Source: Escherichia phage FL23. Taken from it: a DNA stretch of 64,000 nucleotides. The notes beneath the pieces were generated by a model. That model did not search any database. It was not told the DNA's origin and was given only the letters and a program-made list of their open reading frames with translations. Shown piece by piece: positions 33,895 to 35,126 of the stretch. The stretch lies in the sequence record PP400787; one strand, given 5' to 3'. Numbering within the stretch: the first letter of the stretch is position 1; each line of letters opens with the position of its first letter. Position numbers and translations under genes: made by a program.

Positions 33895-34230
33895 ATGTCT
33901 GAAGTACAACAGCTACCAATTCGTGCTGTCGGTGAATATGTTATTTTAGTTTCTGAACCTGCACAAGCCGGTGATGAAGAAGTTACAGAATCAGGACTTA
34001 TTATTGGTAAACGTGTTCAAGGTGAAGTTCCTGAACTGTGTGTAGTTCACTCTGTTGGTCCTGATGTTCCTGAAGGTTTCTGCGAAGTTGGTGATTTGAC
34101 TTCTCTTCCAGTTGGTCAAATTCGAAATGTTCCGCATCCTTTTGTAGCTCTGGGTCTTAAGCAGCCAAAAGAAATTAAACAAAAATTCGTTACCTGTCAC
34201 TATAAAGCTATTCCGTGTCTTTATAAGTGA
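33895..34230 (+). CDS. 31: gp31 co-chaperonin (GroES analogue for capsid folding)
   Basis: 111 aa; [22 protein letters not shown]... Confidence 0.9.
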
Positions 34231-34238: not shown

Positions 34239-34377
34239 ATAATATGAATTGGGTGTCGGAATAATAAGTTAACCGAACAATTCTATGTGGTAGTCTACAA
34301 CTGAGAGATCTGTCGAAAGAAGATGAAATTCAGAAGAACGTGACTACCGAGTTTTAATCTCTAACGAGAATTTTTAA

Positions 34378-34626
34378 ATGATTAAACAATTACAACACGC
34401 TCTTGAACTGCAACGAAACGCATGGAATAATGGTCACGAAAACTATGGCGCATCTATTGATGTTGAAGCCGAAGCTCTTGAAATCCTGCGTTATTTCAAA
34501 CATCTGAATCCTGCTCAAACTGCATTAGCTGCTGAGCTTCAGGAAAAAGATGAACTTAAATATGCTAAGCCTCTGGCTTCTGCTGCACGAAAAGCAGTTC
34601 GTCACTTTGTGGTAACACTGAAGTAA
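34378..34626 (+). CDS. rIII: RIII lysis-inhibition accessory protein
   Basis: 82 aa; MIKQLQHALELQRNAWNNGHENYG... Confidence 0.85.
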   Translation: MIKQLQHALELQRNAWNNGHENYGASIDVEAEALEILRYFKHLNPAQTALAAELQEKDELKYAKPLASAARKAVRHFVVTLK

Positions 34627-34865
34627 TTTACTGGAGATTCACTGCCTTAGTGTGAGCTAAAATCGAGGAGCCGTCGAACTGTCTGATTAATGATTTGCGA
34701 ATCATTATAGTTTTAAGACCCCGGCAGTTTTACGGTGTACCTCTTGAATGTTACTATCATGCGTCAGAAAAGTGTTATCTGTGTAAGTCTTGGTGGTATG
34801 ATGACGAGGTTTATGGTTATCCTGTCGGTAAATATTCAAAACCTATGTTCCCCTTGAGGGCTTGC

Positions 34866-34900
34866 GCAGGCAATGCCAATAAGTCCTGCATTTTCATTTA
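34866..34900 (+). terminator. terminator-like hairpin plus U-rich tail at the end of an ORF-free segment
   Basis: gcagg...cctgc followed by attttcattt. Confidence 0.4.
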
Positions 34901-34914
34901 AAAGAGAATTTATA

Positions 34915-35091
34915 ATGGCAAAACAAGCTAAAGCAAAGAAAGCAGTTGAAAAGAAAGTTGGTGATTCTAAACGCGCTGGCTACAAGCGTGGGTCGAACTC
35001 TCGTATCAATCAAACTGTTGAGAAGATCATGCGCCGAGCACGTGCGGTTCTTCGAGATGATGCTTCTCGTTTTGGTAAGCAGAAAGCATAA
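34915..35091 (+). CDS. small basic lysine-rich protein (30.9-like, 58 aa)
   Basis: ATG 34915 with AAAGAGA SD; MAKQAKAKKAVEKKVGDSKRAGYKRG. Confidence 0.5.
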   Translation: MAKQAKAKKAVEKKVGDSKRAGYKRGSNSRINQTVEKIMRRARAVLRDDASRFGKQKA

Positions 35092-35095
35092 GTTG

Positions 35096-35126
35096 AGGAC
35101 TCCTTCGGGAGTCCTTTTTTATTTTC
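35096..35126 (+). terminator. rho-independent terminator (UUCG loop)
   Basis: aggactcc-ttcg-ggagtcct followed by ttttttatttt. Confidence 0.85.

Follow-up and report, generated by a model that had tools for sequence, protein, structure and literature searches.

A mosaic of structured RNA modules, including ToxI-like and TenpI-like pseudoknots, between rIII and 30.9 of T4-like phages

The gap between rIII and 30.9 in T4-like phages is best explained as a transcribed, noncoding mosaic of RNA modules that fold independently and form part of the rIII-30.9 mRNAs. Two of the modules resemble ToxI and TenpI, the pseudoknot RNA antitoxins of the type III toxin-antitoxin and abortive-infection systems ToxIN and TenpIN of enterobacterial plasmids, and the interval may be an RNA-based counter-defense locus.

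RESULTS

The interval and its neighbors

The window (the whole 64-kb stretch of DNA analyzed here) is a Tequatrovirus segment. Over 1 kb it shows 100% identity with Escherichia phage FL44, and its identity with many T4-type phages is about 99%. The gene order on the + strand is cd, 31.2, 31.1, 31, rIII, the interval, 30.9, a terminator, and 30.8, which has its own early promoter. The rIII gene ends at 34626 and the conserved start of 30.9 is the ATG at 34915 (stop at 35091), so the boundaries from which an earlier sequence-only reading had delimited the gap are correct. The gp30.9 protein, of 58 amino acids, is very basic and has no Pfam match. The features discussed below are as follows.

33895-34230, + strand: gene 31
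34289-34348, + strand: module F, in the gp31-rIII gap outside the interval, a hairpin with a conserved loop
34378-34626, + strand: rIII
34627-34914, + strand: the rIII-30.9 interval, a gene-free gap of 288 nt
34632-34663, + strand: module A, a single diverged ToxI-like (pseudo-ToxI) pseudoknot unit
34662-34750, + strand: module B, an extended hairpin of 89 nt
34752-34798, + strand: module G, an optional hairpin cassette
34800-34850, + strand: module D, an H-type pseudoknot of the TenpI type, about 51 nt
34847-34864, + strand: module E, a short GC hairpin
34866-34889, + strand: module H, a hairpin with a conserved 14-nt loop
34890-34909, + strand: predicted hairpin sequestering the Shine-Dalgarno region of 30.9
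35095-35125, + strand: strong intrinsic terminator after 30.9, called by the terminator scan

The T4 annotation places a middle promoter before gene 31, a late promoter just after it, further early promoters upstream, and a terminator after 30.9. Given the promoters on either side of gene 31, the + strand of the interval should therefore be transcribed within the 31/rIII/30.9 messages. The interval itself contains neither a promoter nor a canonical terminator. Its GC content (0.40) does exceed that of the wider neighborhood (0.30 to 0.37), as had been noticed from the sequence, but the enrichment is not specific to the gap, as rIII and 30.9 reach 0.41 to 0.43.

No coding frame is conserved

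The TTG-initiated frame at 34695-34901 is, as first described, a real open frame, and its peptide of 68 amino acids belongs to no family in Pfam or PHROG. The further statement, that no ORF with an ATG or GTG start and an SD lies in the gap, is accurate for long ORFs only: a GTG ORF of 40 amino acids occupies 34735-34857, and T4 annotates 30.9 from an upstream ATG that corresponds to position 34873 of the window. The interval is matched in 773 phage records and falls into length classes of about 244 bp (T4), 288 bp (window), and about 398 bp (slur03-type phages). An alignment of four near-identical phages displayed invariant flanks interrupted by 1-nt indels, by a 44-nt deletion in T4, and by an insertion of about 155 nt in slur03, all of them between phages that are 97 to 99% identical; the comparison with T4 that the sequence-only reading had proposed thus yields a shortened interval in which the frame is not kept. 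Moreover, no ORF or frame is common to the 37 distinct homologous rIII-to-30.9 intervals of our comparison set (120 to 422 bp, GC 0.39 to 0.48). The interval is noncoding, and these indels and length changes rule against the decayed gene that had been offered as one of two candidates. A decayed or unconventional TTG-initiated protein gene, as implied by some GenBank records, can point to its 68 open codons and to the hypothetical protein annotated there in FL44 and wV7. However, its frame is broken by the 1-nt indels and by the T4 deletion, and it has neither a common ORF nor a family match, so that the comparative data already refute it and its residual probability is negligible.

Compensatory changes on the mRNA strand

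The stability of the interval folded as a whole is not unusual (z = -1.0, and about -1 on both strands); the signal lies in conservation and covariation, which go far beyond chance. A structure built from RNAalifold and inspection was scored on 13 Tequatrovirus-type intervals, where 97.3% of cells proved paired, compared with 32 to 53% when the 3' partners are slid, and eight of its pairs are double-compensated, a number matched by none of 500 shuffles. We assign the structure to the + (mRNA) strand because it contains many invariant G-U pairs, which would be A-C on the opposite strand, and because UNCG and GNRA loops are present on the + strand. Helices are thus conserved with compensatory changes on that strand. 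This covariation-based folding, which had been suggested as a check, supports the proposal of a structured RNA, whose type turns out to be a mosaic of modules. The covariance scan of Rfam suggested alongside it returned no match for the interval at E <= 10, in the window or in seven plus one related loci. A genuine toxI array used as a control likewise gave no match, which shows that type III antitoxins are missing from Rfam 15, and little can therefore be concluded from these negatives.

T4-like phages differ through gain, loss, and rearrangement of modules. The window has the order A-B-G-D-E-H, T4 has A-B-D-E-H, and slur03 has A-B-C-D-E-H, while the 37 intervals also include X-D-A-C-E-F, E-C-D, E-D-G, and others in other genera. 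Each module block occurs as a single copy within the 64-kb window.

Rearranged loci were also observed. In two IMG/VR contigs (L045 and L046, 1293-1623), A-B-D-E-H is followed by an ORF in which the upstream extension of 30.9 is joined to the last 27 residues of rIII, and a tRNA-like region lies downstream. In more distant T4-like phages (L037, 1501-2117; rIII at most 66% identical), an ORF of 120 amino acids begins 5 nt after rIII, and the structured interval, module D, and 30.9 are jointly absent.

Module A resembles ToxI

In the window, stem S1 of module A includes G34633-C34646 and G34634-C34645, and stem S2 consists of C34640-G34654, A34641-U34653, and C34642-G34652. C-G and A-U pairs stand in place of the U-A and G-C pairs of ToxI; S2 is intact, and one S1 pair is a nonstandard A-G. 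The ToxN-type AAAU motif is found at 34660-34663 within the 3' tail, GCUAAAAU, while the 5' side, UAAUUUAC, is without a ToxN-type cleavage motif (AA^AU / GAA^AU). The copies of the T4/window type are 65 to 72% identical to six toxI units, with z values of 3.9 to 6.9 against shuffles.

The link to toxI is made through a graded series that connects the phage copies to plasmid toxI arrays. The copy of one sister phage (L029), GGUGAUUUGCUACCAAAGUGCAGCUAGAAAU, matches 65 small mobilizable plasmids of E. coli, Salmonella, Klebsiella, Yersinia, Pectobacterium, and Serratia in 3 to 10 tandem places each at 91 to 94% identity, as well as 52 of 5,426 E. coli genomes. In plasmid locus L066, 5.6 copies of a 36-nt repeat, AGGTGATTTGCTACCTTTAAGTGCAGCTAGAAATTC, precede a terminator and then a ToxN/AbiQ toxin gene; this repeat is the ToxI unit, and its numbering agrees with the published one (U9-A25, U16-18, C27U28A29; PMC3475682). 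With five further ToxN loci sampled for comparison of toxI clusters, the sister-phage copies proved 82 to 89% identical to toxI arrays on enterobacterial plasmids, and the closest cluster differs by lineage: Ec/Pa for L018 (89%), Ec for L029 (84%), Enterobacter for L061 (82%), and Serratia/E. coli IncF for L044 (82%). Among the enterobacterial plasmids compared (L096-L100 and L090-L095, with toxI or tenpI units), the toxI units themselves form several sequence clusters.

The ToxI pseudoknot pairs (2-4 with 13-15 and 9-11 with 23-25) are kept in 94.4% of cells across ToxI and 11 phage variants, and three of the six pairs (2-15, 9-25, and 10-24) show double changes, a result reached by 0 of 500 shuffles. 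The window copy keeps G5, A6, G21, U22, and C27U28A29, of which G5, A6, G21, U22, C27, and U28 were reported to be critical in ToxI (PMC8860590, PMC3475682). From these alignments and pairings, module A can be taken as shown to be a homolog of ToxI, the antitoxin of ToxIN. It shares the 36- to 38-nt H-type pseudoknot core of ToxI from P. atrosepticum pECA1039 and E. coli plasmids, together with the A-rich 3' tail bearing AAAU. In contrast to ToxI, the phage element has no tandem repeats, no operon of promoter, array, terminator, and toxin, and no ToxN gene, and the window copy further departs from it by an A inserted after position 25. Each phage locus has a single copy, as does the 64-kb window, with no tandem array of about 2 to 6 units, and the gene downstream of the interval is 30.9, whereas the sampled plasmid toxI loci do have ToxN. 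A degenerate ToxI pattern searched in 185k bacterial species genomes returned 20 single, evidently random matches and no arrays.

Module D resembles TenpI

CptI and TenpI are longer H-type pseudoknots with an A-rich loop (PMC5086642, PMC12283969). A tenpI unit has about 39 to 57 nt (mean, 50.9 nt; PMC3401426), with a conserved stem 1 besides the A-rich loop (PMC3401426, PMC12283969), and module D presents about 51 nt, a bulged S1, a covarying S2, and a 13-nt A-rich loop. In the window, S1 pairs 34803-34809 with 34821-34826, leaving G34806 bulged; S2a (34810-34818) follows, and the loop GGUAAAUAUUCAA (34827-34839) leads to S2b (34840-34848). The general layout among phages, in a unit of about 52 nt, is an S1 of 6 to 7 bp with one bulge, S2a directly next to it, a junction of 2 to 3 nt, S1b, an A-rich loop of 12 to 15 nt starting with G(U/G)UAAA, and then S2b. 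S2 reaches 9 bp and covaries strongly, as in UUGGUAGUU/AACUGCUAA, UUGUUGGUU/AACCAACGG, UUCAAGGUU/AAUCUUGGG, and UUGUGAG/CUCACAA; it occurs in 19 distinct variants, and the observed pairing was reached by none of 2,000 shuffles. In the window S2 is shortened to 4 to 5 bp, as GGUU/AACC or, alternatively, UAUGG/CUAUG.

Comparison with plasmid tenpI loci was made from Yersinia p153kb, a locus named in PMC3401426, whose TenpN was located with NCBIfam (112 bits). Two nonidentical units, GAUGUGGUGGAAGGAUGUUCCCCACGUAAAAAAAAAGAAGCAUCC and GAUGUGGUGGAAGAACAGCCCCACGUUAAAAAAAGAAGUGUUC, lie upstream of this gene; the imperfect repeats were missed by TRF. The p153kb units and phage module D (for instance GAUGUGGACGUUGUUGGUUAUCCCCACGUAAAACAUCCGAAACCAACGG in L029) share GAUGUGG..CCCCACGUAAAA and are alike in lead-in, bulged S1, S1b-GUAAAA junction, A-rich loop, and covarying S2. 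Among six more tenpIN plasmids examined, a subgroup with the unit GUGGCGGUAGGAACAUCCCCACGUUAAAAACCCAAAUUCC matches phage module D in its AUCC junction and its GUUAAA.A.CCAAA loop, and its CGGUAAA is exactly as in the window. A covariance model of phage module D only, run on the Yersinia tenpI locus alone, gave 11.6 bits, which is not significant; matches became significant only when the tenpI subgroup of Klebsiella, E. coli, and Citrobacter was included, where 8 of the 10 best matches in 167 kb were tenpI units, in register, with E = 0.002 to 0.04 for the top four. Conversely, a tenpI-only model built from 12 plasmid units placed its 11 best matches in 137 kb on phage D modules, the best at 27.2 bits (E = 6e-5). 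Searches in both directions thus identify the module D family, at the level of sequence and modeled structure, as a homolog of TenpI. The window copy scores 6.9 bits with the tenpI-only model, which is the best in its 1-kb surroundings and not significant alone, and we place it in the TenpI-like family because it is homologous to the copies in other phages, with a score of 62 bits under the phage-D model.

The likeness extends over the GAUG-type lead-in, the 6- to 7-bp S1 with a single bulge, S2a right after S1a, the AUCC junction, the A-rich loop starting with G(U/G)UAAA, S2b, and the covariation of S2 between units. Unlike TenpI of Photorhabdus, Yersinia, and plasmids of E. coli, Klebsiella, and Salmonella, which has similar units of about 50 nt, the phage unit is single and has no TenpN gene nearby; its loop is UAAAUAUCCAAAAC as against UAAAAACCCAAA or poly-A, and its S2 of up to 9 bp compares with 4 to 5 bp in plasmid tenpI. 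No TenpN relatives were found in metagenome contigs. On enterobacterial plasmids, tenpI units are often nonidentical pairs with S2 covarying between both units. A preQ1 or guanidine-III riboswitch was considered for module D and rejected, as there is no Rfam match and the stems differ.

Other modules

Module B is a long interrupted helix around the hairpin UAAUGAUU-UGCG-AAUCAUUA, with P1 pairing 34665-34668 with 34740-34743. Its minimum free energy fold equals the RNAalifold consensus (-25.9 kcal/mol, z = -3.3), and five pairs show double changes, with several G-U pairs kept. Module G pairs 34752-34761 with 34789-34798 around an inner stem, CAGA/UCUG, that covaries to CAGC/GCUG. Its presence or absence varies between flanks that are 98% identical; it is absent in T4, replaced by the ~140-nt module C in slur03-type phages, and found again in another context in L024, L032, and L044. 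Module E (CCC-UUGA-GGG, with conserved flanks GU(U/A) and CUUG) occurs in nearly all T4-like intervals at varying positions; its pairs are kept in 100% of cells, with one covarying variant, CCUC/GAGG in L033. A MotA promoter in module E was dropped as a poor match by eye. In module H, the stem GCAGG/CCUGC has the covarying form AACUGG/CCAGUU in L021 and L036, where the loop, CAAUGCCAAUAAGU, is preserved; the stem position is occupied by module F in other genera.

Module F lies in the gp31-rIII gap of the window (GGUAGUC/GACUACC, with the conserved loop GUCGAAAGAAG) and, by the nhmmer map and its fold, is the same module that is found directly before 30.9 in other T4-like genera. The sequences point to covariation of AACU/AGUU to AUCU/AGAU. 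Its CGAAAGAAG resembles the (A/C)GAAAGA junctions that end plasmid tenpI units, and from this likeness module F might be a mimic of a toxin substrate.

Module C is absent from the window and is inserted at the module G site (34752-34798) in slur03 (L006, 932-1075) and in L029 (1867-2004). Over about 140 nt it contains several apparent pseudoknots, GNRA loops, and visible covariation, and its 20-mer GCTAACGGTGTGCAACAGAT is invariant and single copy in each phage. This 20-mer has no exact match in 185k bacterial species genomes, and module C has no Rfam match; by its sequence it looks like an undescribed complex structured RNA. A tRNA-like fold on the minus strand was dropped, as the stems do not fit. 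Module X is a 34-nt element right after rIII in one clade (L029, 1750-1783), UUUGUACGCCCACCAUGUGUACGCAUGGGUAACG, predicted to be capable of forming a small H-type pseudoknot (GUAC/GUAC plus CCAUG/CAUGG); in other clades its place is taken by a 9-bp hairpin.

The interval without module A gave no BLAST match in 72,556 plasmids and 5,426 E. coli genomes, and in an interval containing modules C and F only the ToxI part matched plasmids and E. coli genomes. Searches of modules B, G, E/H, F, C, and X against 13 type III loci by nhmmer and blastn-short gave noise only.

The 3' end

The hairpin with a U-rich tail that had been noticed at 34866-34900 is present as GCAGG..CCUGC (34866-34889) followed by AUUUUCAUUU, but it is not a canonical terminator: such terminators have a GC-rich stem, a loop of 3 to 8 nt, and an immediate U tract, while here the stem has 5 bp and the loop 14 nt, and the terminator scan does not call it. 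The U-rich run pairs instead with the Shine-Dalgarno region of 30.9, as AUUUUC/GAGAAU in the window, and all other T4-like lineages conserve its equivalent, UUCUCC..GGAAGA, ahead of 30.9. Conservation of 30.9 begins at MAK(Q), whereas the upstream ATG of T4 sits in indel-bearing RNA structure; the longer T4 start (window 34873) is, on this alignment, not supported by conservation. The last 50 nt, i.e., module H and the sequestering hairpin, may additionally control or insulate the translation of 30.9.

DISCUSSION

Type III toxins are freed when the labile antitoxin RNA is not replenished after phage-induced shut-off of transcription (PMC10853763), and a pseudo-ToxI expressed by phage ΦTE can neutralize ToxN (PMC3475682). 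By analogy with ΦTE, we infer tentatively, and at somewhat less than an even chance, that the modules act as RNA decoys that replenish antitoxin during infection. T4-type infection would halt host transcription, the labile host antitoxin RNA would decay, and the endoribonuclease toxin would be freed. The phage transcript would then provide imitation pseudoknots that hold the toxin in an inactive, bound state, as demonstrated experimentally for the ΦTE pseudo-ToxI, and the toxin may excise the phage units at A-rich motifs, e.g., the AAAU at 34660 and 34830. A role as additional decoys, or as scaffolds for folding or stability, is possible for modules B, G, E, and H. In a bolder and unlikely extension, the locus would be a modular array of single decoys (an "RNA counter-defense island"), with each one imitating an RNA that inhibits, or is cut by, a different host defense nuclease. 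ToxI and TenpI would then be the two recognizable cases, modules B, G, E/H, C, and F would be decoys for undescribed RNA-binding effectors, and the locus could serve as a probe to discover such defense systems.

We remain cautious about a decoy role because the units of modules A and D are single copies, because divergence is greatest in the versions of the window and T4, and because E. coli ToxIN (ToxIN-Ec) restricts T4. A functional antitoxin has about two or more units in an array, and ΦTE had to expand its 1.5 repeats to 4.5-5.5 in order to escape (PMC3475682). Module A of wild-type T4 is of the window type, yet ToxIN-Ec restricts this phage, which escapes via the protein TifA and not through the rIII-30.9 locus (PMC9391042). 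The missing cleavage motif on the 5' side of module A, and the lack of counterparts of modules B, G, E, and H in the plasmids, E. coli genomes, and type III loci searched, also count against a decoy role.

The main rival, which we consider rather unlikely as a full account yet which may coexist with a decoy role, is a purely cis-acting untranslated region. The modules would stabilize the 3' end of the rIII mRNA and provide a regulatory leader for gp30.9, e.g., for autoregulation, and the similarity to ToxI and TenpI would reflect only a common descent of pseudoknot folds. The sequestering hairpin conserved in every lineage speaks for it, as do the small size and very basic character of gp30.9, the co-occurrence of module D with 30.9 (both are absent in L037-L043), and the known translational control in T4 via mRNA hairpins and pseudoknots (PMC3014915). 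On the other hand, free change of module order and content is not expected for one integrated leader, and T4 lacks module G without consequence. Moreover, the phage A variants track distinct plasmid toxI clusters (82 to 89%), which points to ToxN-type partners and not to a phage protein.

Two further explanations seem improbable to a similar degree. Scraps of plasmid antitoxin arrays and of other sequences could have been captured by recombination in a tolerant intergenic spot and be drifting neutrally as functionless relics. Such a capture of toxI by recombination is documented for ΦTE-F (PMC3475682), indels and cassette exchanges cluster at the locus, and the T4 copy gives no protection against ToxIN-Ec (PMC9391042). 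Yet modules A and D persist in genera that share only 54 to 77% identity in their rIII proteins, compensatory changes keep both pseudoknot stems while the loops are nearly invariant, and neutral scraps would be lost from a tightly packed genome. Alternatively, one or more discrete trans-acting small RNAs could be processed from the transcript and base pair with host or phage mRNAs. Stable structured segments, a hairpin near the 3' end, and the precedent of rnaC and rnaD, stable T4 RNAs of unknown role (PMC3014915), would fit such RNAs. However, the interval has neither promoter nor canonical terminator, its conserved helices and loops are typical of protein-binding pseudoknots and not of a single-stranded seed, it shows no similarity to rnaC or rnaD by eye, and it has no Rfam match, although Rfam lacks even ToxI.

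Phage RNA mimicry of a type III antitoxin is already known from ΦTE, the single documented example; a 2017 paper still called ΦTE the only phage with such mimicry (PMC5449768). The pseudo-ToxI locus of ΦTE (Blower et al. 2012, PMC3475682) is likewise ToxI-like, intergenic, located in a lytic myovirus, and transcribed in infection, and the L018 copy of module A deviates from ToxI in the same ways (the U9C/A25G compensatory pair, UUU to UU, and an extra 3' A). Whereas ΦTE has 1.5 units expandable to 5.5, there is one unit here. Furthermore, unlike in ΦTE, module A is conserved across the whole subfamily with lineage variants that match different toxI clusters, keeps CUA at positions 27-29 intact (GAC in ΦTE), and belongs to a mosaic that also contains a TenpI-like unit and further structured modules. 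The proposed logic of a toxin inhibitor supplied by the phage is also that of the T4 antitoxin mimics Dmd (against RnlA/LsoA) and TifA (against ToxN); these are proteins from the dmd-tifA locus elsewhere, while the rIII-30.9 locus would be an RNA-based route.

In the searchable literature, we found no prior account of a T4 noncoding RNA, of the rIII-30.9 region, or of a T4 ToxI-like sequence, and the accessible ToxIN and T4 literature does not mention a ToxI-like sequence in T4. What would be new here is the presence and conservation of such elements in T4-type phages, the TenpI-like unit, the mosaic of several families, and the cluster-tracking variation. If the decoy reading is true, RNA-based anti-abortive infection would be widespread and ancient, with a first mimic of TenpI, and it would offer a testable explanation for differences in the host range of therapeutic Tequatrovirus phages on strains with ToxIN or TenpIN plasmids.

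The analysis also corrects annotation. Rfam has no model for such RNAs, and many GenBank records carry a spurious protein here; the CDS annotations of the interval in some records are artifacts. Such CDSs occur at 34695-34901 and at homologous positions in many deposited genomes as hypothetical proteins (as in FL44 and wV7), and RAST-annotated records label the homologous positions "1,4-alpha-glucan branching enzyme."
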